Assembly (NCBI RefSeq): GCF_055900595.2
Contig: NZ_CM148325.1
Length of the DNA: 64,000 nt
Reading direction: 5' to 3' (one strand)
The position numbers were made by a program, and so were the translations under genes. Position 1 is the stretch's first letter. Each line of letters starts with the position of its first letter. Under the pieces are notes generated by a model, which was not told the origin of the DNA, searched no databases, and saw nothing but the letters and a program-made list of their open reading frames with translations. Below are positions 202 through 25,486 of the stretch, piece by piece.

Positions 202-783
202 TTAACCAAAAATTTCCACAAGATGCTTGCGATATTCTTCAGTATAGCGGGGAACATCAGGCATTTTTATCACGTCATTAGCGATAAATGTCGGCAGCGG
301 TTCCATACCAAGGAATTGGTTTGCTTTATGGAATGGTAGATACACACCGTCAACGCCAACCCCGTGGAAGAACTGATCTTTTTCGGTGAAAGCTTCCATT
401 GGTGCGTTCCAGGTCAGGGAAAGCATATATTTTTTACCTTGTACCAGACCGCCAGAACCGTATTTTTTCGACGGATCTTTGCGGGTACGACCATCGCTGG
501 CATACAGCGTACCGTGACCTTCGGTGAATACATCATCAATGTATTTTTTCACCGTCCACGGCGCGCCCATCCACCAGCCTGGCATCTGCCAGATCACCAC
601 ATCAGCCCAGAGAAAGTTTTGTACTTCCGCTTTGACATCGTAGTCGCTGTCGGCGCGAACGATGCGGACATCATGCCCGAGGTCGCGCAGCGTGCCATCC
701 GCGACTTCGGTCAGGGTGTCGTTCAGTTGACCATTGGAGTGGGCGAATTTTTTCGCGCCGTTGATAATCAGGATGTTGCTCAT
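202..783 (-). CDS. mdaB: NADPH:quinone oxidoreductase MdaB
   Basis: 193-aa ORF starting MSNILIINGAKKFAHSNGQLN, flavodoxin-like quinone reductase recognised as MdaB. Confidence 0.93.
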   Translation of the reverse strand: MSNILIINGAKKFAHSNGQLNDTLTEVADGTLRDLGHDVRIVRADSDYDVKAEVQNFLWADVVIWQMPGWWMGAPWTVKKYIDDVFTEGHGTLYASDGRTRKDPSKKYGSGGLVQGKKYMLSLTWNAPMEAFTEKDQFFHGVGVDGVYLPFHKANQFLGMEPLPTFIANDVIKMPDVPRYTEEYRKHLVEIFG

Positions 784-1099
784 TTTTTAACCTCAAGGTG
801 AGACGTTTGCCGACTATAGTACGTCACAGAGCGGTACGGTGAAATTAGCAAAATGTGCAAACTCTTTTGCGAATTTAGCAAAAGTCTGATCTTGCTCCGA
901 TTCACCGATGCAGGATAAATATTTTCTGAAAATGACAATACTGATAGCCATTCCTCATAATTCCTACTCGCACCGGATTAATTTACAGGTTTGGTTCGGT
1001 TTTTTGGGGATTAAAAATATGGCGTTGGATAAGTAAAAATGAAAATATCAACGCGTCACGTTGATAATTATAAATGGATTTTTATGAGCGTGCTAACAT

Positions 1100-1432
1100 A
1101 TGTTAAAGCATAAAATTCAAACAATATTTGAAGCTCTGTTATATATAATGCTTACTTATTGGTTAATAGATGCTTTTTTTGCATTCAATAAGTATGACTG
1201 GATGCTTGAGTCGGGAGACAATATTTGCAGTATACCTTCCGTTTCAGGCGAAGATCGTATATTGCAAACAATGATTGCAGCATTTTTTCTTCTGACGCCA
1301 CTTATTATTATTATCTTAAGAAAACTCTTTGTGCGAGAAATGTTTGAGTTTTGGTTATATGTAATCTCGCTCGTTATTTGTTTGGTTTGTGGTTGGTGGC
1401 TTTTTTGGGGACGGTTTATATTTTGCTATTAA
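1100..1432 (+). CDS. ygiZ: Small inner-membrane protein YgiZ
   Basis: 110-aa hydrophobic ORF in the expected position between mdaB and qseC; AT-rich, several predicted TM segments. Confidence 0.7.
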   Translation: MLKHKIQTIFEALLYIMLTYWLIDAFFAFNKYDWMLESGDNICSIPSVSGEDRILQTMIAAFFLLTPLIIIILRKLFVREMFEFWLYVISLVICLVCGWWLFWGRFIFCY

Positions 1433-1477
1433 TAAAATCTATGAGAGTCGTTTTAACGGCTCTCATAGACAGAGAAG

Positions 1478-2827
1478 TTACCAGCTTACTTTCGCCTCAA
1501 ATCCACCTTGTTCCGCATTCCCAAACTCAACATTCATGCCATGCAGCTTGGCGATTCGCTGGACAATTGAAAGCCCAAGTCCACTGCCGGTAGCGGTTTG
1601 TCCGGGTGGGCGATAGAAGCGTTCGCCAATTCTCGCCAGTGCCTCTGGTGTCACACCGGGGCCGTTATCCCTCACGATGAAATTATCGGCATTCAGCGTG
1701 ACGTCCACCACGCTACCTTGTGGACTGTAGCGCACGGCGTTATCCAGCAAATTTCGCACCAACAAACTTAGCAATAGCGGTTGTCCGGTGCGTTTGATGC
1801 CGTGGGCATTGAGTGTCAGTCGCACGTCAATTTTCGCCTGCTGCGCCGTGTGGTAAATATCCATCACCGACGATTGCAGGAGATCTTCAAGCGGGATCTC
1901 CGCGACGTCCTGAAGGTTATCCAGTGAGTCCAGCCGCGATAGCGTGAGCAGTTGATCAACCAGACGAGTAGCACGATCGATTCCGGAATGTAATTGAAGC
2001 AGCGCTTTTTTCCGCGCCTGCGGATCATCGTCAGAGAGCTGCGCAACTTCGGTTTGCACTTTCAGCGCCGTTAACGGGCTACGAAGTTCGTGAGCTGCGT
2101 CGGAGGTAAAGCGTCGTTCACGAACCATCATCGCATGTGTGCGGGCGAACAGTTGATTCAACGACTCAACCAGTGGACGCACTTCGCTGGGTACGCCCGT
2201 CGCGTTTAGTGGTTTTTCCGAGTCAGGGTCACGCATACGTAGTGCCAGCGCCAGTTTGTTCAGCGGCGCGAGTTCACGACCCAGTAGTACCATCATGATG
2301 ATTAACATAATCGGCAGTGCGACAAGCCACGGGATCAATTGCCCGGCAACAATTGCCAGCGCCATGTCTTCGCGGTATTCCCATTCCTGACCAACAACGA
2401 TGCGATATTTGCCATCAGGTGAGGTCATCCAGACAAAACGCCAGGGATCGTCTTCACCGACCAGTTGCCCGTCAGCAAAACCTTCCCGTTGATAGCTATA
2501 GGGAATATCTTCTCCGTTATCGCCATCGTTAAGGACCATTCTGCCGTCGTGGGTAAAGATGGCAAAGGTCAGCGCATCGTCATCAACATGACCGTGTTTT
2601 AATTTATTTGGCGTCTGTGCCATGCGATCCGCCGCGTTGATTTCGTTGAGATCGAGCGTACTTAACCGTTTGGCAAACAGCATCAGTTGGGTGTCGAACA
2701 ACTCATCGACGTTATCCGTTGTTTGTTTCCAGGCGACAAAGCTGGAAAGCAGCCAGGTCACCGAGGCCAGAATTAAAAAGATTAGCGTCAGCCTGACTCG
2801 CAGACTAAGACGTTGGGTAAATTTCAT
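1478..2827 (-). CDS. qseC: Quorum-sensing/adrenergic sensor histidine kinase QseC
   Basis: 449-aa ORF with two TM segments, H-box (AAHELRSPL) and ATPase G-boxes; overlaps qseB stop by 4 nt. Confidence 0.95.
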
Positions 2828-3483
2828 TTCTCACCTAATGTGTAGCCAATACCATGCACGGTACGAATAAAATCACTACCGAGTTTGCGTCGCAGATGAT
2901 GCACATGCACTTCAACGGCATTACTGGTGACCTCTTCGTCCCAGGTATACAGTTTCTCTTCAATCAGTTTGCGCGGCAGTACTCGACCAGCGTTACGCAT
3001 CAGTAATTCCAGCAGGGCAAATTCTTTTGGTTTCAGCGTTAAGGGTTCGCCAGCCAGCGTGGCGATACGTTTGCCGGGGTCGAGCATGACGTTGCCGTGG
3101 CGCAGCTCGTTGCTGGCCTGGCCGTTGGTTCGGCGCATCAGAGCTTCCAGCCTGGCGGCGACTTCTATCAACGCAAAAGGTTTACACAGATAATCGTCAG
3201 CTCCCAGACGCAGCCCTTCTACACGTTCCGCCAGCGCATCGCGCGCAGTCAGGATTAATACCGGCTCACGCTGACCTTTTTCTCGCCATTCGCGCAAAAT
3301 ATCGCGACCATCCATGCCCGGTAAGGTTAAATCCAGGATCACCGCATCATAAGGTGCGCTATATAGCGCCTCTTTTCCCTGACGACCTTGTGTAAACCAG
3401 TCGACGCTAAAACCCATTTTACTAAGGCCCGTTTTGATGCCGTCGCCAATCAGCATGTCATCTTCTATCAGTAAAATTCGCAT
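2824..3483 (-). CDS. qseB: OmpR-family response regulator QseB
   Basis: 219-aa ORF starting [20 protein letters not shown] with receiver and winged-helix domains; coupled to qseC. Confidence 0.95.
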
Positions 3484-3634
3484 TTTTTCATCCCTGCGAT
3501 AACCATATTTGCTGCCAGTAAACCGTGTTGTAACGCGCTCTGTACAGCACTAAATTTTATTTTTTTCCCTTAAGAAGTTGTTAAGGACTATCTTGTTAAA
3601 TGCTCGAAAACAGACATTAAAGGGAGTAATAAAC

Positions 3635-4027
3635 ATGAAAAAATTCGCAGCAGTAATCGCAGTAATGGCCCTGTGCAGTGCACCGGTGATGGCAGCAGAG
3701 CAGGGCGGTTTTTCTGGTCCATCGGCAACACAAAGTCAGGCCGGAGGATTCCAGGGGCCGAATGGCAGCGTAACGACCGTAGAAAGCGCAAAATCCCTGC
3801 GTGATGACACTTGGGTCACCCTGCGCGGCAATATCGTTGAACGTATCTCTGACGATCTCTACGTGTTCAAAGATGCCAGCGGTACTATCAATGTTGATAT
3901 CGACCACAAACGCTGGAACGGCGTGACGGTGACCCCGAAAGATACCGTTGAGATTCAGGGTGAAGTCGATAAAGACTGGAACTCTGTTGAAATTGACGTC
4001 AAACAGATCCGCAAAGTAAATCCGTAA
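3635..4027 (+). CDS. ygiW: Periplasmic OB-fold (BOF) stress protein YgiW/VisP
   Basis: ATG at 3635 with upstream AGGGAG; signal peptide MKKFAAVIAVMALCSAPVMA; 130 aa. Confidence 0.85.
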   Translation: MKKFAAVIAVMALCSAPVMAAEQGGFSGPSATQSQAGGFQGPNGSVTTVESAKSLRDDTWVTLRGNIVERISDDLYVFKDASGTINVDIDHKRWNGVTVTPKDTVEIQGEVDKDWNSVEIDVKQIRKVNP

Positions 4028-4079
4028 TTGTTAGCGCTCCCGGGACACGTTCCCGGGAATAATTTCGCAGGGAGGCAAA

Positions 4080-4562
4080 ATGAAAAACCTGACACTGGAT
4101 GTAAATATTATCGATTTCCCATCAATCCCTGTGGCGATGTTGCCACATCGCTGTAGCCCTGAATTGCTCAACTACAGCGTGGCGAAATTTATCATGTGGC
4201 GTAAAGAAACGGGGCTTTCTCCTGTTAACCAAAGCCAGACTTTTGGTGTCGCCTGGGATGACCCTGCCACCACCGTACCGGAAGCGTTTCGCTTTGATAT
4301 CTGCGGCAGCGTTAACGAACCGATTCCCGATAATCGTTATGGCGTGAGTAATGGTGAACTTACCGGTGGACGTTATGCCGTGGCCCGCCACGTTGGCGAG
4401 CTGGACGATATTTCACATACGGTATGGGGCATCATTCGCCACTGGCTGCCTGCAAGCGGCGAGAAAATGCGTAAAGCACCGATTCTGTTTCACTACACCA
4501 ATCTTGCCGAAGGGGTAACAGAGCAGCGACTGGAAACGGATGTTTATGTGCCGTTGGCGTGA
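4080..4562 (+). CDS. ygiV: GyrI-like small-molecule-binding protein YgiV
   Basis: 160-aa ORF in the expected position next to ygiW; GyrI-like effector-binding fold by sequence character. Confidence 0.8.
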   Translation: MKNLTLDVNIIDFPSIPVAMLPHRCSPELLNYSVAKFIMWRKETGLSPVNQSQTFGVAWDDPATTVPEAFRFDICGSVNEPIPDNRYGVSNGELTGGRYAVARHVGELDDISHTVWGIIRHWLPASGEKMRKAPILFHYTNLAEGVTEQRLETDVYVPLA

Positions 4563-4899
4563 TGAAGAATCTTTACCGGAGTGTGAGTCAAATCACTCGC
4601 TATCAGTTTAAGTTAACGATGCCACAGGCGTAATGTTGTCCGCTCAGACTCTGACGGCACAGGATTTTGTCCTTCCACACAGAAACCGCCATTGGCGGTT
4701 TTCCGCTGCATAATCCTCAGGATTATGTCTATAGCAAAGAGTTGTATATAAAGGCACATTGGTGCCTTTATCGCCGTCGGAGCACGTCCGGCGGCGCTAT
4801 TCACGCTGATCTCCTGTGACTCGACGCGGCAGATAATGTAGTATCTCCGGCAATATTGCCCCTTTGAAGGCTGGCGAATAAGTTGAGGAATCAGAATTA

Positions 4900-7158
4900 A
4901 TGAGCGATATGGCAGAGCGCCTTGCGCTACATGAATTTACGGAAAACGCCTACTTAAATTACTCCATGTACGTAATCATGGACCGTGCGTTGCCGTTTAT
5001 TGGTGATGGTCTGAAACCTGTTCAGCGCCGCATTGTGTATGCGATGTCTGAACTGGGACTAAATGCCAGCGCCAAATTTAAAAAATCGGCCCGTACCGTC
5101 GGTGACGTACTGGGTAAATACCATCCGCACGGTGATAGCGCCTGTTATGAAGCGATGGTCCTGATGGCACAGCCGTTCTCTTACCGTTATCCGCTGGTTG
5201 ATGGTCAGGGGAACTGGGGCGCGCCGGACGATCCGAAATCGTTCGCAGCAATGCGTTACACCGAATCCCGGTTGTCGAAATATTCCGAGCTGCTATTGAG
5301 CGAGCTGGGGCAGGGGACGGCTGACTGGGTGCCAAACTTCGACGGCACTTTGCAGGAGCCGAAAATGCTGCCTGCCCGTCTGCCAAACATTTTGCTTAAC
5401 GGCACCACCGGTATTGCCGTCGGTATGGCGACCGATATTCCACCGCATAACCTGCGTGAAGTGGCTCAGGCAGCAATCGCATTAATCGACCAGCCGAAAA
5501 CCACGCTCGACCAGCTGCTGGATATCGTGCAGGGGCCGGATTATCCGACTGAAGCGGAAATCATCACTTCGCGCGCCGAGATCCGTAAAATTTACGAGAA
5601 CGGACGTGGTTCAGTGCGTATGCGCGCGGTGTGGAAGAAAGAAGATGGCGCGGTGGTTATCAGCGCATTGCCGCATCAGGTTTCAGGTGCGCGTGTACTG
5701 GAGCAAATTGCTGCGCAAATGCGCAACAAAAAGCTGCCGATGGTTGACGATCTGCGCGATGAATCTGACCACGAGAATCCGACCCGTCTGGTGATTGTGC
5801 CGCGTTCCAACCGTGTGGATATGGATCAGGTGATGAACCACCTCTTCGCAACCACCGATCTGGAAAAGAGCTATCGTATTAACCTCAATATGATCGGTCT
5901 GGATGGGCGTCCGGCGGTGAAAAACCTGCTGGAAATCCTTTCCGAATGGCTGGTGTTCCGCCGTGATACCGTGCGCCGCCGTCTGAACTATCGTCTGGAG
6001 AAAGTCCTCAAGCGCCTGCATATTCTGGAAGGTTTGCTGGTGGCGTTTCTCAATATCGACGAAGTGATTGAGATCATTCGCAATGAAGATGAACCGAAAC
6101 CGGCGCTGATGTCGCGCTTTGGCCTCACGGAAACTCAGGCGGAAGCGATCCTCGAACTGAAACTGCGTCATCTCGCCAAACTGGAAGAGATGAAGATTCG
6201 CGGTGAGCAGAGTGAGCTGGAAAAAGAGCGCGACCAGTTGCAAGGCATTCTGGCGTCCGAGCGTAAAATGAATAACCTGCTGAAGAAAGAACTGCAGGCA
6301 GACGCGCAAGCCTATGGTGACGATCGTCGTTCGCCGTTGCAGGAACGCGAAGAAGCGAAAGCGATGAGCGAGCACGACATGTTGCCGTCTGAACCTGTCA
6401 CCATTGTGCTGTCGCAGATGGGCTGGGTACGCAGCGCTAAAGGCCATGACATCGACGCGCCGGGCCTGAATTATAAAGCGGGTGATAGTTTCAAAGCAGC
6501 GGTGAAAGGTAAGAGCAACCAACCGGTAGTGTTTGTTGACTCCACCGGTCGTAGCTATGCTATCGACCCGATTACGCTGCCGTCGGCACGTGGTCAGGGC
6601 GAGCCGCTCACCGGCAAATTGACGTTGCCGCCTGGGGCGACCGTTGACCATATGCTGATGGAAAGCGACGATCAGAAACTGTTGATGGCTTCCGATGCGG
6701 GTTACGGTTTCGTCTGCACCTTTAACGATCTGGTGGCGCGTAACCGTGCAGGTAAGGCCTTAATCACTTTACCGGAAAATGCCCATGTTATGCCGCCTGT
6801 GGTGATTGAGGACGCTTCTGATATGCTGCTGGCAATCACTCAGGCAGGCCGTATGTTGATGTTCCCGGTAAGCGATCTGCCGCAGCTGTCGAAGGGCAAA
6901 GGCAACAAGATTATCAACATTCCATCGGCAGAAGCCGCGCGTGGAGAAGATGGTCTGGCGCAACTGTACGTTCTGCCGCCGCAAAGCACGCTGACCATTC
7001 ATGTTGGGAAACGCAAAATTAAACTGCGTCCGGAAGAGCTACAGAAAGTCACTGGCGAACGTGGACGCCGCGGTACGTTGATGCGCGGTTTGCAGCGTAT
7101 CGATCGTGTCGAGATCGACTCTCCTCGCCGCGCCAGCAGCGGCGATAGCGAAGAGTAG
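4900..7158 (+). CDS. parC: DNA topoisomerase IV subunit A
   Basis: 752-aa ORF with GyrA/ParC N-terminal breakage-reunion domain (active-site region [10 protein letters not shown]) and C-terminal beta-pinwheel. Confidence 0.97.
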
Positions 7159-7391
7159 TATGCCGGGGAGGGTATTGCTTCCTCCCGCTTGCAAGGAACG
7201 CCGGATGAAACGTTAAGTCGTCATCCGGCAGCATATTCAACCCCCGGAAACGATAAAAATTCCCTTGAAACCGTTGTTTATTCATGCGTTGCGATTAACA
7301 ATACGCTTTTCCAGAGAGCGGCTTTTAACAATGCCCTAACCTGATTTCAGGTGACGTACAATGCCAGTCTCTCAGACCTTCAGAGGGTGTT

Positions 7392-8129
7392 ATGCTATAT
7401 ATCTTTCGTCTTATTATTACCGTGATTTACAGCATCTTAGTCTGTGTATTCGGCTCCATTTACTGCCTTTTCAGCCCGCGTAACCCGAAACATGTAGCCA
7501 CCTTTGGGCATATGTTTGGTCGTCTTGCGCCGCTGTTCGGCCTGAAAGTTGAGTGTCGCAAACCTGCAGATGCTGAAAGCTACGGCAATGCTATTTATAT
7601 TGCTAACCACCAGAACAACTATGACATGGTGACAGCATCGAACATTGTGCAACCGCCGACGGTGACGGTAGGTAAAAAGAGTTTGCTGTGGATCCCCTTC
7701 TTTGGTCAGTTGTACTGGCTAACCGGCAACTTATTGATCGACAGAAATAACCGCACTAAAGCTCACGGCACCATTGCAGAAGTAGTGAATCACTTCAAAA
7801 AACGCCGTATTTCCATCTGGATGTTCCCGGAAGGTACCCGCAGCCGTGGTCGCGGCCTGCTGCCGTTCAAGACCGGAGCATTTCACGCGGCAATTGCGGC
7901 GGGCGTCCCGATTATTCCCGTGTGCGTCTCTACAACTTCGAATAAGATTAATCTTAATCGGCTACACAACGGTCTGGTGATTGTCGAAATGCTGCCGCCA
8001 ATTGACGTCAGTCAGTATGGCAAAGATCAGGTTCGCGAGTTGGCTGCCCATTGTCGTTCGATAATGGAACAAAAAATCGCTGAGCTCGATAAAGAAGTCG
8101 CAGAACGCGAAGCCGCCGGAAGAGTTTAA
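7392..8129 (+). CDS. plsC: 1-acyl-sn-glycerol-3-phosphate acyltransferase
   Basis: 245-aa ORF with acyltransferase HX4D motif (ANHQNNYD) and FPEGTR motif. Confidence 0.95.
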   Translation: MLYIFRLIITVIYSILVCVFGSIYCLFSPRNPKHVATFGHMFGRLAPLFGLKVECRKPADAESYGNAIYIANHQNNYDMVTASNIVQPPTVTVGKKSLLWIPFFGQLYWLTGNLLIDRNNRTKAHGTIAEVVNHFKKRRISIWMFPEGTRSRGRGLLPFKTGAFHAAIAAGVPIIPVCVSTTSNKINLNRLHNGLVIVEMLPPIDVSQYGKDQVRELAAHCRSIMEQKIAELDKEVAEREAAGRV

Positions 8130-8202
8130 GTCGGCAATCTGTATTTTTGCGGGAACACTTTCCTGCACGGTATTACTTTAGCCAGTTTTACATGGAGCAA
8201 AT

Positions 8203-9615
8203 ATGTCACTCAGTCGGCGTCAGTTCATTCAGGCATCGGGGATTGCACTTTGTGCAGGCGCTGTTCCCCTGAAGGCCAGCGCAGCCGGGCAACAGCAACC
8301 GCTACCCGTTCCGCCGCTGCTTGAATCTCGCCGTGGGCAACCGCTGTTTATGACTGTACAACGTGCGCACTGGTCATTTACGCCAGGAACGCGCGCATCG
8401 GTCTGGGGAATCAATGGTCGTTACCTGGGGCCGACTATCCGCGTCTGGAAGGGCGATGATGTTAAGCTGATCTACAGTAACCGCCTGACAGAAAATGTCT
8501 CAATGACGGTGTCTGGTTTACAGGTGCCTGGCCCGCTGATGGGCGGTCCGGCACGGATGATGTCGCCAAACGCTGACTGGGCACCCGTATTACCCATTCG
8601 CCAGAACGCAGCGACATTGTGGTATCACGCTAATACCCCCAATCGCACGGCTCAGCAGGTCTATAATGGCCTTGCCGGAATGTGGCTGGTGGAAGATGAA
8701 GTCAGCAAGTCGCTGCCTATCCCCAACCATTATGGTGTGGATGATTTTCCGGTCATTATCCAGGATAAACGGCTGGATAATTTTGGTACGCCAGAATACA
8801 ACGAACCGGGAAGCGGCGGCTTTGTTGGAGATACGCTGCTGGTCAACGGTGTACAAAGCCCGTACGTTGAAGTCTCGCGTGGCTGGGTGCGCTTGCGTCT
8901 GTTGAACGCGTCGAACTCTCGTCGCTATCAACTACAGATGAGCGATGGTCGCCCGTTACATGTGATTTCTGGCGATCAGGGATTCTTGCCTGCTCCTGTA
9001 TCGGTGAAGCAACTTTCGCTGGCACCGGGCGAGCGCCGCGAGATTCTGGTGGATATGAGCAACGGTGATGAAGTGTCGATCACCTGTGGCGAAGCGGCGA
9101 GCATTGTTGATCGTATTCGTGGCTTCTTTGAGCCATCCAGCATTCTGGTTTCTACGCTGGTGCTCACGTTGCGCCCGACCGGGCTACTGCCGCTGGTTAC
9201 TGACAGCCTGCCGATGCGCCTGCTGCCAACTGAAATTATGGCCGGTTCGCCGATTCGCAGTCGCGATATCAGTCTGGGTGATGACCCGGGTATCAATGGG
9301 CAGCTGTGGGACGTCAACCGTATTGATGTCACCGCGCAGCAAGGAACGTGGGAACGCTGGACGGTACGCGCGGACGAGCCGCAAGCGTTCCATATTGAAG
9401 GCGTGATGTTCCAGATCCGTAACGTGAATGGCGCGATGCCGTTCCCGGAAGACAGAGGCTGGAAAGATACCGTTTGGGTTGACGGACAAGTGGAGCTGCT
9501 TGTTTATTTCGGTCAGCCTTCCTGGGCGCACTTCCCGTTCTACTTCAACAGTCAGACGCTGGAAATGGCGGACCGTGGCTCGATTGGGCAATTGTTGGTC
9601 AATCCGGTACCGTAA
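8203..9615 (+). CDS. ftsP: Cell-division protein FtsP (SufI), multicopper-oxidase fold, Tat-exported
   Basis: 470-aa ORF with twin-arginine signal SRRQFIQASGIALCAGA and cupredoxin-like domains. Confidence 0.95.
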   Translation: MSLSRRQFIQASGIALCAGAVPLKASAAGQQQPLPVPPLLESRRGQPLFMTVQRAHWSFTPGTRASVWGINGRYLGPTIRVWKGDDVKLIYSNRLTENVSMTVSGLQVPGPLMGGPARMMSPNADWAPVLPIRQNAATLWYHANTPNRTAQQVYNGLAGMWLVEDEVSKSLPIPNHYGVDDFPVIIQDKRLDNFGTPEYNEPGSGGFVGDTLLVNGVQSPYVEVSRGWVRLRLLNASNSRRYQLQMSDGRPLHVISGDQGFLPAPVSVKQLSLAPGERREILVDMSNGDEVSITCGEAASIVDRIRGFFEPSSILVSTLVLTLRPTGLLPLVTDSLPMRLLPTEIMAGSPIRSRDISLGDDPGINGQLWDVNRIDVTAQQGTWERWTVRADEPQAFHIEGVMFQIRNVNGAMPFPEDRGWKDTVWVDGQVELLVYFGQPSWAHFPFYFNSQTLEMADRGSIGQLLVNPVP

Positions 9616-9618
9616 TCG

Positions 9619-9656
9619 CCATACTCGCCCGAGAGGGCGAGTATGGAATACTTTTC
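9619..9656 (+). terminator. Rho-independent terminator after ftsP
   Basis: 12-bp perfect stem CCATACTCGCCC/GGGCGAGTATGG with GAGA loop followed by a T-rich tract. Confidence 0.55.
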
Positions 9657-9724: not shown

Positions 9725-11944
9725 ATGAGCTCTATCTCCCTGATCCAACCGGATCGCGACCTGTTCTCCTGGCCGCAGTACTGGGCCGCCTGTTTTGGAC
9801 CGGCACCGTTTTTGCCGATGTCTCGTGAAGAGATGGATCAACTTGGCTGGGATAGCTGCGACATCATTTTGGTTACTGGCGACGCGTATGTCGATCACCC
9901 CAGCTTTGGGATGGCGATTTGCGGTCGTATGCTTGAAGCGCAGGGCTTTCGTGTCGGGATCATCGCCCAGCCAGACTGGAGCAGCAAAGACGACTTTATG
10001 CGTCTGGGCAAACCGAATCTGTTTTTCGGCGTTACCGCAGGCAACATGGACTCGATGATCAACCGTTACACTGCCGATCGCCGTTTGCGTCATGACGATG
10101 CCTACACGCCAGATAACGTCGCGGGTAAGCGCCCGGATCGCGCCACCCTGGTTTATACCCAACGCTGTAAAGAGGCGTGGAAAGATGTGCCGGTGATCCT
10201 CGGCGGTATTGAGGCTAGTTTGCGTCGTACCGCGCATTATGATTACTGGTCTGATACCGTGCGCCGTTCCGTGCTGGTGGATTCCAAAGCCGACATGCTG
10301 ATGTTCGGTAACGGTGAGCGTCCGCTGGTGGAAGTGGCGCATCGTCTGGCGATGGGTGAGCCGATTAGTGAAATCCGCGATGTGCGTAATACCGCGATTA
10401 TCGTAAAAGAGGCGTTGCCAGGCTGGAGCGGTGTGGATTCCACCCGTCTTGATACTCCTGGGAAAATCGACCCGATCCCGCATCCGTATGGTGAAGATTT
10501 GCCGTGCGCGGATAACAAACCGGTGGCCCCGAAAAAGCAGGAAGCGAAAGCCGTAACCGTGCAGCCACCGCGCCCGAAACCGTGGGAAAAAACTTACGTA
10601 TTGCTGCCTTCTTTCGAGAAAGTGAAGGGCGATAAAGTGCTGTACGCTCATGCTTCGCGTATTCTGCACCATGAAACCAACCCAGGCTGCGCGCGTGCGC
10701 TGATGCAAAAACATGGCGACCGCTATGTATGGATCAACCCGCCTGCCATCCCGCTTTCTACCGAAGAGATGGACAGCGTCTTTGCGCTGCCGTACAAGCG
10801 CGTGCCGCATCCGGCTTACGGTAATGCCCGAATTCCGGCTTACGAAATGATCCGTTTCTCTGTCAACATTATGCGCGGCTGCTTTGGCGGCTGCTCTTTC
10901 TGCTCTATTACCGAGCATGAAGGTCGCATTATTCAGAGCCGTTCGGAAGATTCGATCATCAACGAGATTGAAGCGATCCGCGACACCGTGCCAGGCTTTA
11001 CGGGCGTGATTTCCGATCTCGGTGGGCCAACTGCCAACATGTATATGTTGCGCTGCAAATCGCCGCGCGCCGAGCAGACTTGCCGCCGTTTATCGTGCGT
11101 TTACCCGGATATTTGTCCTCATATGGACACTAACCACGAACCGACGATCAACCTCTATCGCCGCGCGCGTGATCTGAAAGGCATTAAAAAGATCCTCATC
11201 GCTTCCGGCGTGCGTTATGACATCGCCGTGGAAGATCCGCGCTATATCAAAGAGCTGGCGACCCATCACGTTGGCGGTTATCTGAAGATTGCCCCGGAAC
11301 ATACCGAAGAAGGGCCGTTGTCGAAGATGATGAAGCCGGGCATGGGCAGCTATGACCGCTTTAAAGAGCTGTTCGATACCTACTCGAAACAGGCAGGTAA
11401 AGAGCAATATCTGATCCCGTATTTCATCTCGGCACACCCCGGTACGCGTGATGAAGATATGGTGAATCTGGCGCTGTGGCTGAAAAAGCATCGCTTCCGT
11501 CTCGACCAGGTACAGAACTTCTACCCGTCGCCGTTGGCTAACTCCACCACCATGTATTACACCGGGAAAAACCCGCTGGCGAAGATCGGTTACAAGAGTG
11601 AAGACGTCTTCGTACCGAAGGGCGACAAACAGCGTCGTTTGCATAAAGCGTTGTTGCGTTACCACGATCCGGCAAACTGGCCGTTAATCCGTCAGGCGCT
11701 GGAAGCGATGGGTAAAAAGCATCTGATTGGCAGCCGTCGTGATTGCTTAGTGCCTGCGCCAACCATTGAAGAGATGCGCGAAGCCCGCCGTCAGAACCGC
11801 AATACCCGTCCGGCGTTGACTAAACATACGCCGATGGCGACCCAGCGTCAGACGCCTGCTACGGCAAAAAAAGCGTCGTCTACGCCATCTCGCCCGGTGA
11901 ATGCTGGTGCAAAGAAACGGCCTAAAGCGGCGGTTGGTCGTTAA
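9725..11944 (+). CDS. ygiQ: Radical SAM protein YgiQ (UPF0313)
   Basis: 739-aa ORF with radical-SAM cysteine cluster (CFGGCSFC) and basic Lys/Arg-rich C-terminal tail. Confidence 0.9.
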
Positions 11945-11954
11945 GTGAAATGTG

Positions 11955-11978
11955 CCCGGCAGCAATGATACTGCCGGG
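11955..11978. terminator. Hairpin between convergent ygiQ and the Lpp-like gene (possible bidirectional terminator)
   Basis: 8-bp stem CCCGGCAG/CTGCCGGG with 8-nt loop; flanking T-run is weak on both strands. Confidence 0.35.
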
Positions 11979-11982
11979 AAAT

Positions 11983-12213
11983 TTATAACCTTGGTTTATA
12001 AGGACTGTTACGAACGTCTAAGCGGTAATGCGCTCTTGCTGTTTCGTCTTTAACTTGCTGAATTTCCGGACGCAGGGCGTCAATATCCTGTTGCAGTTGA
12101 TTAATTTTGTTATTCAATGCCTGAATATCATGTTCCAGGTGTTCAATTTTGGCATTGCTGGTACAGCCAACAAGATACAGCGCCAGCGGAATGGATAAGA
12201 TAAGTTTGTTCAT
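11983..12213 (-). CDS. Lpp-like coiled-coil lipoprotein (76 aa)
   Basis: ATG at 12213; signal peptide plus lipobox (LVGCTSN); heptad-repeat alpha-helical body resembling Braun lipoprotein. Confidence 0.6.
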   Translation of the reverse strand: MNKLILSIPLALYLVGCTSNAKIEHLEHDIQALNNKINQLQQDIDALRPEIQQVKDETARAHYRLDVRNSPYKPRL

Positions 12214-12230
12214 TATGAATTCCAGAACCG

Positions 12231-12488
12231 TCATTCCGCATACATACGCAAGCAGCGCAGGCAATCAAAATAGTCCTGAGCATCAAGACGCGTATTGGCT
12301 CTGTTAGCTTCGGATTTTGCCGCATAGATTTGCGGGCGTAATGCTTTCATATCCTGCTCAAGCCGGGCGATTTTGGCATTTAATGTTTGCACATTGCTCG
12401 CCAGCTGATTGACCTTTTGCTCATTGACGCAGCCGCTGAGCAAGCAGGTTGCCAGAACAACAGCCCCCACGGTGAAAATCGTTTTCAT
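12231..12488 (-). CDS. yqhH: Lpp-like outer-membrane lipoprotein YqhH
   Basis: 85-aa ORF with lipobox LSGCVNE and coiled-coil body; position matches yqhH next to yqhG. Confidence 0.75.
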
Positions 12489-12538
12489 ATAGTATTCCCT
12501 TTTATTTATTGTTCCGGCTAATTGTTATTTAATTCAGC

Positions 12539-13465
12539 TCATTGCTTTAATCTGGCGGCGGTTTTCACCTCAATCTGTTTAAGTAGGCTGCCGCTGTTCG
12601 GGCGGATAAAATCAGCGATTTCCCACTTACCTTCGCGCCGCTGTAAAACCAGTTCTTGCTCTTCGTTGTTGCCATTGGTCAGCGTAAAACGAACATGAAT
12701 GCGGGCGGAATCGGTGGTTTTCTCCAGGACACGGATTTCATCAACGCGTGAAAATAGCGACTCTTCGCCAAAACAGATCGGATTGTCGTAAATAAATTGC
12801 CGTTCTATTTGCATATCTTCATCGGGATTGTTGGCAGTCTTGAAGGTGGTTTTATAGAAGGCATTGACCGCCTGGCGGTAAGAGTCGGAAACCACCCACG
12901 TCCACGGCCAGCTATAATCAGCAATATGTTCAAAGAGTTCGGCAACAAAGGCTTCCGGCTGTTCTTTTTGCAACGAAGCTACAGCGGCCAGCGTTTTTTC
13001 ATTCTCGCTATTAACTGCTTGTAAGACGCTGCCATGATTGCTGACAATATCGTCAATGACCCAACGACCATTTTCCGCCACCATTTTCAGTGTCTGCGTG
13101 GTCTTTTCTTTATCGTCTTTAAAGATACGAAAGCGCACAACGGCATCGGCATGATCGGCGTCAGGTTGGGTTATCGCTACGCTTTCTAACACCAGATCGC
13201 CAAAATCCTGACAATCACAAACCGGATCATAATCCAGCCAGCCAATATTGCCCGGCAGCGTAAGATTGTCGTTCAGGGTAAGCGCCTGTTGAATACGCGC
13301 AGAAGTTATCGCTCGCTCTCCGGTTTCACCAAAATAAGGCGTACTGGCATCTGATTTATAGTTCTGATAAATCTGCCGGACTGTTTGTTCTACGGTCTGT
13401 GAAGGAGGCTGCGCGTGTACGGTAAAACTTGCCAGGGCTGCTAAAAACAGAAGTATTATTTTCAT
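12539..13465 (-). CDS. yqhG: Secreted DUF3828-type protein YqhG
   Basis: 308-aa ORF with N-terminal signal peptide (MKIILLFLAALASFTVHA). Confidence 0.8.
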   Translation of the reverse strand: MKIILLFLAALASFTVHAQPPSQTVEQTVRQIYQNYKSDASTPYFGETGERAITSARIQQALTLNDNLTLPGNIGWLDYDPVCDCQDFGDLVLESVAITQPDADHADAVVRFRIFKDDKEKTTQTLKMVAENGRWVIDDIVSNHGSVLQAVNSENEKTLAAVASLQKEQPEAFVAELFEHIADYSWPWTWVVSDSYRQAVNAFYKTTFKTANNPDEDMQIERQFIYDNPICFGEESLFSRVDEIRVLEKTTDSARIHVRFTLTNGNNEEQELVLQRREGKWEIADFIRPNSGSLLKQIEVKTAARLKQ

Positions 13466-13664
13466 CTGTTTTTCACCTCTCCGTTGCGTTTATCCCGGGT
13501 GTAGATGAATTGTTCCTTTAAGAGCTTCCTGCTCTGCATGATGATGTCCTTATATTTGGCATTCCTGAACAAGGAAGAGTAACAATGGGCAGGACGCGAG
13601 GGGAATAAATGATTTCTGAAAAGTCCGGTAGCGGAACATTACCGCCACCGGGAGAATTTGCGCG

Positions 13665-14492
13665 TTAGCCGCCGAACTGGTCGGGATCGGGGCCGAGGCG
13701 TTTGCCCTGGTCGAGTTTGGCAATTTCACCTAGCTCGTCTTTGTCGAGACGGAAATCCCAGACATCAAAGTTTTCGGCAATACGTGAAGGTGTTACCGAT
13801 TTCGGGATCACCACCAGGCCGTTATCCAGATGCCAGCGGATAACAATCTGCGCCGGGGTTTTGCCGTATTTATCTGCCAGATCGCGAATGACTTTCTGAT
13901 CGAAAACGCCTTTCCCACCTTGCGCTAATGGGCTCCAGGATTCGGTCTGGATTTTGTGTGTCGCGTTCCAGGCGTGAAGCTGGCGTTGCTGCATCAGCGG
14001 GTGGAGTTCAATCTGGTTTATCACCGGCGTCACGCCAGTTTCATCAATCAGGCGTTGCAGGTGGTGGATCTGGAAGTTGCACACGCCGATGCTTTTGATT
14101 AAGCCCTCTTTTTGCAATTCGATCATGCCCTTCCATGCTTCGACATAATGGTCAATAGCAGGAACGGGCCAGTGCATTAAGTAAAGGTCGACATAATCAA
14201 GCTGGAGTTTTTTCAGGCTGTCGAGCAGGGCTTCGCGGGGGCGCTTGTGGTCGTCGTTCCACAGTTTAGTGGTGATGAACAGTTCTTCTCTGTTAACTGA
14301 GGCATTTTTCAGGGCTTTGCCGACACCTTCTTCGTTCTTATAGGCCGCGGCGGTATCAATCGAGCGATAACCCACGTCTAACGCTTTTTGAATGGCAGTG
14401 ATTACTTCCTCATTACTTGCTTGCCAGACGCCCAGTCCCAACTGGGGCATGACATTGCCATCCTGTAGCTTAATAACGGTTGGATTAGCCAT
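13665..14492 (-). CDS. dkgA: Aldo-keto reductase DkgA (2,5-diketo-D-gluconate reductase A / methylglyoxal reductase)
   Basis: 275-aa ORF starting MANPTVIKLQDGNVMPQLGLGVWQ, AKR family signature. Confidence 0.95.
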   Translation of the reverse strand: MANPTVIKLQDGNVMPQLGLGVWQASNEEVITAIQKALDVGYRSIDTAAAYKNEEGVGKALKNASVNREELFITTKLWNDDHKRPREALLDSLKKLQLDYVDLYLMHWPVPAIDHYVEAWKGMIELQKEGLIKSIGVCNFQIHHLQRLIDETGVTPVINQIELHPLMQQRQLHAWNATHKIQTESWSPLAQGGKGVFDQKVIRDLADKYGKTPAQIVIRWHLDNGLVVIPKSVTPSRIAENFDVWDFRLDKDELGEIAKLDQGKRLGPDPDQFGG

Positions 14493-23104: not shown

Positions 23105-23257
23105 GACCTCTCCTTTCCACCATTCAATTTCGAAACAATGTTTCCAGTTTAGCGATTTACCAGGGGGGATCCCGTAGCATCGCTCACAGTGTGACGAAAA
23201 ACTGGGCAAAAACACGTGCTTATGCTTTGCTTAAAAAAACACCAATTAAGGAGTGCA

Positions 23258-23800
23258 ATGATGCCGCGTCTGACCGCTAAAGATTTCCCACAAGAGTTGC
23301 TGGATTACTACGACTATTACGCTCACGGGAAAATTTCGAAACGTGAGTTCCTCAACCTTGCGGCGAAGTATGCGGTGGGCGGGATGACGGCATTAGCGTT
23401 GTTTGATTTGCTCAAGCCAAATTATGCGCTGGCGACTCAGGTAGAGTTTACCGACCCGGAAATTGTTGCTGAGTACATCACGTATTCTTCGCCAAATGGT
23501 CACGGCGAGGTACGGGGTTATCTGGTGAAGCCCGCAAAGATGAGCGGCAAAACGCCAGCCGTGGTGGTGGTGCATGAGAATCGTGGACTGAATCCGTATA
23601 TCGAAGATGTGGCACGGCGAGTAGCGAAGGCGGGGTATATCGCCCTGGCACCTGACGGCTTAAGTTCCGTTGGAGGTTATCCGGGTAATGATGATAAAGG
23701 TCGTGAGCTGCAACAGCAGGTTGATCCAACCAAACTGATGAATGATTTCTTTGCCGCAATTGAGTTTATGCAACGCTATCCGCAAGCGACAGGCAAAGTG
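23258..23800 (+). pseudogene. yghX: yghX 5' segment (dienelactone-hydrolase-family protein) interrupted by IS10
   Basis: ORF from ATG 23258 (MMPRLTAKDFPQELLDYYDYY...) reads in frame into the IS10 end at 23801. Confidence 0.8.
23792..23800. repeat. IS10 target-site duplication, left copy (GGCAAAGTG)
   Basis: Identical 9-bp GGCAAAGTG directly flanks both IS10 ends (23792-23800 and 25130-25138). Confidence 0.9.
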
Positions 23801-25129
23801 CTGAGAGATCCCCTCATAATTTCCCCAAAACGTAACCATGTGTGAATAGATTTTGAGTAAGCAGGGTTGCAGCCACGAGTGAGTCTTCCCTTGTTATTGT
23901 GTAGCCAGAATGCCGCAAAACTTCCATGCCTAAGCGAACTGTTGAGAGTACGTTTCGATTTCTGACTGTGTTAGCCTGGAAGTGCTTGTCCCAACCTTGT
24001 TTCTGAGCATGAACGCCCGCAAGCCAACATGTTAGTTGAAGCATCAGGGCGATTAGCAGCATGATATCAAAACGCTCTGAGCTGCTCGTTCGGCTATGGC
24101 GTAGGCCTAGTCCGTAGGCAGGACTTTTCAAGTCTCGGAAGGTTTCTTCAATCTGCATTCGCTTCGAATAGATATTAACAAGTTGTTTGGGTGTTCGAAT
24201 TTCAACAGGTAAGTTAGTTGCTAGAATCCATGGCTCCTTTGCCGACGCTGAGTAGATTTTAGGTGACGGGTGGTGACAATGAGTCCGTGTCGAGCGCTGA
24301 TTTTTTCGGCCTTTAGAGCGAGATTTATACAATAGAATTTGGCATGAGATTGGATTGCTTTTAGTCAGCCTCTTATAGCCTAAAGTCTTTGAGTGACTAG
24401 ATGACATATCATGTAAGTTGCTGATAGGTTTCCAGTTTTCCGCTCCTAGGTCTGCATATTGTACTTTTCCTCTTACTCGACTTAACCAGTACCAACCCAG
24501 CTTCTCAACGGATTTATACCATGGCACTTTAAAGCCAGCATCACTGACAATGAGCGGTGTGGTGTTACTCGGTAGAATGCTCGCAAGGTCGGCTAGAAAT
24601 TGGTCATGAGCTTTCTTTGAACATTGCTCTGAAAGCGGGAACGCTTTCTCATAAAGAGTAACAGAACGACCGTGTAGTGCGACTGAAGCTCGCAATACCA
24701 TAAGCCGTTTTTGCTCACGGATATCAGACCAGTCAACAAGTACAATGGGCATCGTATTGCCCGAACAGATAAAGCTAGCATGCCAACGGTATACAGCGAG
24801 TCGCTCTTTGTGGAGGTGACGATTACCTAACAATCGGTCGATTCGTTTGATGTTATGTTTTGTTCTCGCTTTGGTTGGCAGGTTACGGCCAAGTTCGGTA
24901 AGAGTGAGAGTTTTACAGTCAAGTAAGGCGTGGCAAGCCAACGTTAAGCTGTTGAGTCGTTTTAAGTGTAATTCGGGGCAGAATTGGTAAAGAGAGTCGT
25001 GTAAAATATCGAGTTCGCACATTTTGTTGTCTGATTATTGATTTTTGGCGAAACCATTTGATCATATGACAAGATGTGTATCCACCTTAACTTAATGATT
25101 TTTACCAAAATCATTAGGGGATTCATCAG
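23801..25129 (-). mobile_element. IS10 (IS4 family), complete 1329-bp copy
   Basis: Ends CTGAGAGATCCCCTCATAATTTCCCC (inside end, 23801) and CTGATGAATCCCCTAATGATTTTGG (outside end, reverse at 25129); contains the 402-aa transposase; 9-bp direct repeats flank it. Confidence 0.95.
23814..25022 (-). CDS. IS10 transposase
   Basis: 402-aa ORF MCELDILHDSLYQFCPELHLKRLNSLTLACHALLDCKTLTLTELGRNLPTK... recognised as IS10/Tn10 transposase. Confidence 0.95.
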   Translation of the reverse strand: MCELDILHDSLYQFCPELHLKRLNSLTLACHALLDCKTLTLTELGRNLPTKARTKHNIKRIDRLLGNRHLHKERLAVYRWHASFICSGNTMPIVLVDWSDIREQKRLMVLRASVALHGRSVTLYEKAFPLSEQCSKKAHDQFLADLASILPSNTTPLIVSDAGFKVPWYKSVEKLGWYWLSRVRGKVQYADLGAENWKPISNLHDMSSSHSKTLGYKRLTKSNPISCQILLYKSRSKGRKNQRSTRTHCHHPSPKIYSASAKEPWILATNLPVEIRTPKQLVNIYSKRMQIEETFRDLKSPAYGLGLRHSRTSSSERFDIMLLIALMLQLTCWLAGVHAQKQGWDKHFQANTVRNRNVLSTVRLGMEVLRHSGYTITREDSLVAATLLTQNLFTHGYVLGKL

Positions 25130-25138
25130 GGCAAAGTG
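25130..25138. repeat. IS10 target-site duplication, right copy (GGCAAAGTG)
   Basis: Direct repeat of 23792-23800. Confidence 0.9.
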
Positions 25139-25486
25139 GGTATTACCGGATTTTGCTATGGCGGTGGTGTATCGAACGCGGCGGCTGTCGCGTATCCGGA
25201 ACTGGCCTGCGCGGTGCCGTTTTATGGTCGTCAGGCACCCACTGCCGATGTGGCGAAGATTGAAGCGCCTTTACTGCTCCACTACGCGGAACTGGATACC
25301 CGAATCAACGAGGGCTGGCCCGCTTACGAGGCGGCGTTGAAAGCCAATAATAAGGTCTATGAGGCGTATATCTATCCGGGGGTTAATCACGGATTCCATA
25401 ATGATTCCACGCCCCGTTATGACAAATCTGCCGCCGATCTTGCCTGGCAAAGGACGCTGAAATGGTTCGATAAATATCTCTCCTGA
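25130..25486 (+). pseudogene. yghX: yghX 3' segment (dienelactone hydrolase C-terminal part)
   Basis: Continues the yghX frame after the IS10/TSD (...GKV|[15 protein letters not shown]...). The IS plus one TSD copy is 1338 bp, which is divisible by 3, so the two segments are in phase. Confidence 0.78.

Follow-up and report, generated by a model that had tools for sequence, protein, structure and literature searches.

Lpp, the Braun lipoprotein, is the most abundant protein of E. coli, and both the spacing of the outer membrane from the cell wall and their tethering depend on it. Work on minor paralogs such as YqhH and LppB as possible modulators has begun only recently. Both Lpp and OutB are attached to peptidoglycan through a C-terminal lysine (PMC12274547; bioRxiv 10.1101/2025.11.13.688167), and for OutB the attachment residue must be C-terminal (PMC12274547). 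Salmonella LppB, a minor paralog whose gene stands in tandem with that of a second family member, has been proposed to form mixed trimers that tune outer membrane-peptidoglycan tethering (bioRxiv 10.1101/2025.11.13.688167). The same idea has been put forward for YqhH, which without that lysine cannot be cross-linked and may complex with Lpp (bioRxiv 10.1101/2025.11.13.688167). In K-12, yqhG and yqhH are treated as a single BglJ-RcsB-activated unit (PMC3950696).

The locus described here lies in a window of 64,000 nucleotides (contig NZ_CM148325.1 of assembly GCF_055900595.2) and contains yqhH followed by a second, smaller gene of the same family, here called lpp76 (Table 1). A first-pass annotation made from the sequence alone had described two tandem genes 17 bp apart, each with a signal peptide, a lipobox and a heptad-repeat body, and had likened both to Braun lipoprotein. 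This description is borne out in every part. There are two adjacent minus-strand ORFs, one of 85 aa (12488..12231) and one of 76 aa (12213..11983), and the gap between the TGA of yqhH and the ATG of lpp76 is exactly 12230..12214. Both proteins begin with a positively charged N-terminus and a hydrophobic stretch that leads into a lipobox, which reads L-S-G-C in the longer protein and L-V-G-C in the shorter one. In both bodies isoleucine, leucine, methionine and valine are concentrated in two heptad registers out of seven, which are also those used by Lpp. Both also match Pfam PF04728 (LPP), at 47.9 bits (85 aa) and 42.1 bits (76 aa) against a gathering score of 29.1. With lpp76 the Lpp family gains a true third member. 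It seems likely that these genes form the tail of a yqhG-yqhH-lpp76 operon, and that lpp76 encodes a non-cross-linked outer membrane rod, is ancestral at this locus and was lost by E. coli sensu stricto.

Table 1. Positions of the tandem lipoprotein genes, their parts and their neighbours in the window.
Feature	Position	Strand	Basis or remark
yqhH, 85-aa Lpp paralog	12231..12488	minus	ORF, NCBIfam equivalog, PGAP
lpp76 (name used in this report), 76-aa Lpp-family lipoprotein gene	11983..12213	minus	ORF, Pfam, PGAP, synteny
Spacer from yqhH stop to lpp76 start, 17 nt	12214..12230	minus	weak GGA Shine-Dalgarno-like element only
Alternative in-frame ATG, overlapping the yqhH stop (ATGA)	12232..12234	minus	83-aa product, MTVLEFI + 76 aa
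lpp76 signal peptide and lipidated Cys17	12163..12213	minus	residues 1-16 are MNKLILSIPLALYLVG; read from translation
lpp76 coiled-coil body, residues 21-68	12010..12153	minus	heptad table, AlphaFold2, alignment
lpp76 C-terminal tail NSPYKPRL	11986..12009	minus	alignments; AlphaFold2 coil, residues 69-76
G+C-rich hairpin between convergent lpp76 and ygiQ	11955..11978	.	RNA fold, Salmonella alignment
yqhG (YbjP/YqhG/Tai3 family), 50 nt upstream of yqhH	12539..13465	minus	ORF, annotation
ygiQ (radical SAM), convergent neighbour; synteny anchor common to Salmonella	9725..11944	plus	ORF, annotation

The product of the 85-aa gene is YqhH, an Lpp paralog already known, and the protein is unchanged from that of K-12. 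It scores 197.7 bits against the NCBIfam YqhH equivalog NF007428 (cut-off 120). PGAP names it yqhH (WP_000848528.1), and the same accession is annotated in a K-12-type genome as well as in a genome whose sequence here is identical to that of the window. At the nucleotide level the window copy differs from that of K-12 by 8 synonymous and 0 non-synonymous changes. The lipobox of YqhH occupies residues 17-20, and its C-terminus contains two cysteines and no terminal lysine.

The first gene of the operon is probably yqhG. A promoter scan of 11850-13750 found no sigma-70-like site, although a promoter of yqhG has been published for K-12 (PMC3950696), and Rfam yielded nothing credible within 11500-13800. 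The hairpin that follows lpp76 has a predicted folding energy of -20.3 kcal/mol (z = -4.4), and its stem is kept in Salmonella but its loop is not. The hairpin is a probable bidirectional terminator; it was not called by a scan for consensus terminators because it has no T-run.

The 76-aa protein begins MNKLILSIPLALYLVGC and is already present in RefSeq as WP_001037462.1, where PGAP names it 'LPP leucine zipper domain-containing protein'. The exact protein of the window is recorded from 349 contigs and a common allele from 918. Its match to the Pfam LPP family has an E-value of 1.1e-10. However, it falls below the cut-offs of both of the more specific NCBIfam models, that for the major outer membrane lipoprotein (NF011925, 68.9 vs 108 bits) and that for YqhH (NF007428, 51.9 vs 120 bits), and by these NCBI cut-offs it is neither Lpp proper nor YqhH. 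An alignment of the two proteins to each other and to Lpp, which the first-pass annotation had proposed as a check, gives the 76-aa protein 45% identity to E. coli Lpp and 45% to YqhH (over 56 residues). Against the solved Lpp chains (PDB 1EQ7 and 9RLD) it aligns without gaps over 57 residues from the lipidated cysteine (E = 3.7e-13). The likeness of the 76-aa protein to the Lpp family is far beyond chance. Literature searches on YqhH and Lpp paralogs found no publication on the 76-aa gene, and lpp76 is best described as an annotated but uncharacterised small gene of a well-known family. The Salmonella locus tags STM3166-3171 were considered as the lpp76 locus and rejected, as these tags belong to a TRAP transporter.

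The signal peptide of the 76-aa protein is composed of a short n-terminal portion (MNK), a hydrophobic portion (LILSIPLALY) and the lipobox (LVG before the cysteine), and Cys17 aligns with Cys1 of mature Lpp. The lipobox is LAGC or LVGC depending on the allele, and the allelic changes Y13C and V15A both fall inside the signal peptide. The residue at +2 is Thr rather than Asp, with Ser in the Salmonella ortholog; absence of Asp at +2 is the sequence criterion for sorting to the outer membrane. The a/d core, I L I L I L I L I V T A L, keeps the register of Lpp and YqhH, and 11 of the 12 I/L/M/V residues fall in the two heptad registers favoured by Lpp. AlphaFold2, run on the monomer, predicts a single helix over residues 4-68, with pLDDT above 90 at residues 21-60, and coil for the last eight residues (69-76). 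The body carries an ALRP motif in common with YqhH. The protein ends NSPYKPRL and so does not have the C-terminal lysine of the Lpp box, although an internal lysine is present in the tail (YKPRL). No cysteine occurs after Cys1.

These features set lpp76 apart from each of its described relatives. It shares with Lpp the lipobox and Cys1, a +2 residue other than Asp, the same 3-4 heptad register and almost the same mature length (60 residues in lpp76 vs 58 in Lpp). However, Lpp ends in YRK, with the C-terminal lysine of the Lpp box, and has AMRS where the 76-aa protein has the proline-containing ALRP. In addition, lpp76 lies in a minor operon, whereas lpp is a highly expressed gene. With YqhH (P65298) it shares the locus, the strand, the ALRP motif, the heptad register and the absence of a C-terminal lysine. 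YqhH differs in its longer tail with two cysteines and in its presence in essentially all E. coli; lpp76 lacks cysteines after Cys1, has PRL at its end and occurs only in a rare lineage. It resembles Salmonella LppB in being a minor Lpp paralog in tandem with a family member (bioRxiv 10.1101/2025.11.13.688167). However, the combination of C-terminal cysteine and lysine that characterises LppB, which has Lys58 and a redox-active Cys57, is absent from lpp76, while YqhH has its two C-terminal cysteines.

[quoted passage not shown] There it would form an Lpp-type coiled coil of ~50 residues, which may be a parallel homotrimer as in the Lpp family. Covalent attachment to peptidoglycan by L,D-transpeptidases is not expected, because the protein ends in YKPRL and not in a C-terminal lysine, and it would thus stand as a free Lpp-like rod. 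Conceivably, it might co-assemble with YqhH or Lpp and so dilute the cross-linkable subunits, or its tail might bind a partner.

Among complete E. coli genomes lpp76 is rare. It is found in 18 of 5,426, at nucleotide identities of 98.9-100% and intact in all 18, and sensitive blastn found no remnant of it in the other 5,408. The first-pass annotation had held that absence of the ORF from closely related genomes would speak against the gene. The absence is real, in 5,408 of 5,426 E. coli, but the consequence does not follow, since the loss is clean and the gene is intact both in its carriers and in Salmonella. The 18 carriers are among the 19 best of 5,425 matches for parC-plsC, ~5 kb away, and the 30 kb around the locus are 98.5-100% identical among carriers vs ~96-97% identical to K-12. 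A single lineage takes in all 18 carriers, among which 2013C-4282 and EC42405 are complete genomes of Escherichia cryptic clade I (PMC10100065). The gene also occurs at the corresponding locus of "Escherichia sp. 94.0001". Because ygiQ of this strain is ~94% identical to that of both clade I and K-12, it represents a second divergent Escherichia lineage with lpp76. The distance from the yqhH stop to the ygiQ stop is 42 nt in K-12, compared with 286 nt in the window. By eye, the K-12 spacer looks like the hairpin region of the window in which the stop codons of yqhH and lpp76 directly adjoin. Loss in E. coli sensu stricto may therefore be pictured as a deletion of ~245 nt that would have removed the 17-nt spacer and the 76 sense codons.

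Within clade I, yqhH of the window differs from the copies at three other loci (L009, L011 and L015) at 11 of 258 sites, all synonymous, while in the neighbouring lpp76 no more than 1-2 sites differ. The contrast suggests that recombination breakpoints lie within the yqhH-lpp76 pair in clade I, or that alleles have been exchanged there.

Outside Escherichia, a word-indexed protein search returned two clusters and missed Salmonella, which was recovered by an exhaustive search, by a frameshift-corrected query and by a profile query. The closest non-Escherichia relative in the exhaustive search is a 64-aa protein, and its contig carries two Lpp-like genes followed by a convergent ygiQ. Both YgiQ and the 82-aa protein on this contig are exact Salmonella enterica proteins. 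Over its full length the DNA of the 64-aa ORF aligns with lpp76 except for a 1-nt deletion, which is found in one Salmonella lineage, and the two have in common the TAA stop and the CCCGGCAG...CTGCCGGG stem of the hairpin. Intact 76-aa orthologs (P0107 and P0108) are each recorded from at least 1,000 contigs, P0108 in 7,337 collection blocks; they are 68-70% identical to lpp76 and have the same ALRPEIQ core. These orthologs, also uncharacterised, resemble lpp76 in length, in their place by ygiQ and in the hairpin. They differ in having an 87-nt spacer and a recognisable Shine-Dalgarno sequence, and in following an 82/83-aa paralog. In Salmonella a yqhG-like gene is followed by the 84-aa YqhH ortholog, a ~4-kb block, the 82/83-aa paralog, the 76-aa ortholog and ygiQ, so that the 82/83-aa and 76-aa pair is separated by the block from the true yqhH ortholog.

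The comparison with Salmonella also bears on selection. Between lpp76 and the frameshift-corrected Salmonella copy dN/dS is 0.21 (0.026 for ygiQ), and pN/pS is 0.163/0.47 upstream and 0.129/0.54 downstream of the frameshift. Nucleotide identity to Salmonella is 77% for lpp76 and 84.5% for ygiQ. To judge by these values, lpp76 is under purifying selection across Escherichia-Salmonella. The gene is intact in 18 carriers, syntenic and intact in Salmonella and under purifying selection, and for these reasons it is a real gene and not a chance ORF. It is old: the last ancestor that Escherichia shared with Salmonella already had it next to ygiQ, and it is still found in cryptic clade I and in one or more further Escherichia lineages that have diverged. 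It is also dispensable, since one Salmonella lineage is frameshifted and E. coli sensu stricto is without the gene.

Several further observations were made at related loci. The ~4-kb block in Salmonella (L019-L021, about 400..5231) holds an amidohydrolase gene, and the Salmonella locus carries three YqhH-type Lpp-like genes. One Salmonella protein of 77 aa (P0103) consists of the N-terminal half of the 82-aa paralog and the C-terminal half of the 76-aa gene, joined at DINALRP. This chimera suggests unequal recombination between the tandem paralogs. One enterobacterium has a single 80-aa gene with a PRL tail between the yqhG-like gene and ygiQ (2362..2604 and 1824..2066 of loci L017 and L018). 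A scan of 100,044 species representatives with 8-residue patterns gave a single match, a chance NQLQQDID in a Lachnospiraceae MAG (L003, 4001..4102). This match lies in the ORF of a 580-aa sensor histidine kinase and is excluded as an Lpp relative. The 8-residue patterns are too strict even for the Salmonella ortholog, and the scan is uninformative on other genera and other Escherichia species.

The strength of each Shine-Dalgarno sequence was taken as the pairing energy between the 20 nt upstream of a start and the 3' tail of 16S rRNA. For the lpp76 ATG at 12213 this energy is -3.3 kcal/mol, against a median of -3.7 for random 20-mers of the window. The earlier remark that the downstream copy has no obvious Shine-Dalgarno sequence is thus confirmed, the pairing being no better than that of random sequence. 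The corresponding values are -5.3 kcal/mol for yqhH, -5.5 for the median of the long ORFs of the window and -5.4 for the Salmonella ortholog, which has AAGGAAG in its 87-nt spacer. Because the Shine-Dalgarno sequence of lpp76 is nearly absent and its start lies 17 nt past the yqhH stop, translation of lpp76 is probably coupled to ribosomes terminating on yqhH.

The extent of the product and the nature of its C-terminus each allow another reading. An in-frame ATG at 12234..12232 is kept in every Escherichia locus seen, and several gene callers choose it (P0004, P0006 and P0014), so that the real product could be an 83-aa form whose start, at the ATGA overlapping the yqhH stop, would be coupled through a 4-nt overlap. 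This appears quite unlikely. The ATG in question is built from the last codon of yqhH, GAA, and its TGA, and is found also in K-12, which has no downstream gene; the MTVLEFI extension is absent from Salmonella, where the protein starts with MNK at the aligned position. The extension would also put a Glu into the n-region of the signal peptide, the pairing of this start is poor as well (-2.6 kcal/mol), and PGAP picks the 76-aa form. We favour the 12213 ATG on sequence grounds, because the upstream ATG is simply the GAA-TGA of yqhH and its extension has no Salmonella counterpart. The mature lipoprotein is identical from either start. At the other end of the protein, high overall similarity to Lpp and a tail of similar length containing Tyr-Lys might point to a true Braun-type tether, linked to peptidoglycan via the internal lysine of YKPRL or after C-terminal trimming, and the Lpp box is known to tolerate many substitutions (PMC12274547). 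Such a tether is very improbable. In every documented case the attached residue is a C-terminal lysine, and the NCBIfam score against the major outer membrane lipoprotein model is below its cut-off (68.9 vs 108). Moreover, what is kept between Escherichia and Salmonella is the tail RNSP[YF]xPRL, as RNSPYKPRL and RNSPFSPRL respectively, so that in Salmonella Ser takes the place of the lysine. A 76-aa homolog with 54% identity (P0122) ends in NPPRL, and the middle paralogs of Salmonella and Kluyvera end in HPRL, HPPRL and HPPRW. What these tails conserve is thus Pro-Arg-Leu, not lysine. The further proposal that lpp76, the 82/83-aa Salmonella paralogs and the 86-aa Kluyvera paralogs, with their P-R-[LW] ends, form a distinct 'PRL-tailed', non-cross-linkable class of Lpp-like proteins is doubtful. 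If it were true, the loss of lpp76 would rank among the few differences in gene content that set the envelope architecture of E. coli sensu stricto apart from that of clade I or Salmonella.

The history and present state of the gene can also be read differently. Its occurrence in just 0.33% of complete E. coli genomes, directly adjoining a paralog, would be expected if lpp76 had been newly inserted in clade I, by horizontal transfer or by local duplication of yqhH. A recent tandem duplication of yqhH was considered and rejected, given the protein identity of only 45% and DNA repeats between the two genes that are short and ~73% identical. Insertion of any kind is scarcely credible, as the Salmonella ortholog occupies the same position by ygiQ with the same stop and hairpin context, lpp76 (77% identity) and ygiQ (84.5%) have diverged to a comparable degree, and features of mobile elements are absent from the lpp76 flanks. 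A somewhat less remote reading, though still an unlikely one, accepts the ancestry of lpp76 and takes the clade I gene for a silent relic, intact by descent and no longer translated. [quoted passage not shown] Differences between lpp76 alleles within Escherichia are mostly non-synonymous (2 vs 0 synonymous in several pairs), in keeping with a relic, but these counts are too small to speak for or against selection. However, the 76-codon frame, the lipobox and the tail are intact in 18/18 carriers and in the other Escherichia loci examined, while the flanks diverge by 1.5-5%. The 17-nt distance from stop to start fits translational coupling, and dN/dS is 0.21 across the whole Escherichia-Salmonella distance. 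An ancestral gene, still translated from the operon tail, remains the preferred reading.

Elsewhere in the window, a 402-aa ORF on the minus strand (23814..25022) encodes an IS4-family transposase (NCBIfam NF033591, 402 bits), which we take to be that of an IS10-like element. It splits yghX into two parts on the plus strand (23216..23845 and 25136..25486), and neither the K-12-type locus nor two further clade I loci contain the ~1.3-kb transposase segment. At 4564..4692 of the window, between ygiV and parC, the mqsR-mqsA toxin-antitoxin pair and ygiS are absent relative to locus L008 (2892..5458); in the clade I loci L009 and L011 ygiS is retained and mqsRA is absent. Between ftsP and ygiQ, locus L009 (2013C-4282, 7290..9650) carries genes for a 474-aa hypothetical protein and an ankyrin-repeat protein, and in Salmonella a 473-aa DUF4459/YARHG/DUF4431 protein is encoded on the corresponding side of ygiQ. 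Strain Z0117EC0005 matches the window perfectly at 5-8 kb and at 11.9-12.6 kb. The glcB-glcA region (56000..59000) finds its 100% matches in ST69-type genomes and others that lack lpp76, and not in Z0117EC0005. The genome of the window may be a mosaic, or its exact match may be missing from the genome collection.

The pattern described here shows an extra Lpp paralog, without a linkable C-terminal lysine, in the ancestor of Escherichia and Salmonella, which was lost by the laboratory species and kept by clade I and Salmonella. As a small gene with this distribution, lpp76 may serve as a marker that separates clade I from E. coli proper. It also offers a natural contrast of presence and absence with which to test what the paralogs of Lpp do.
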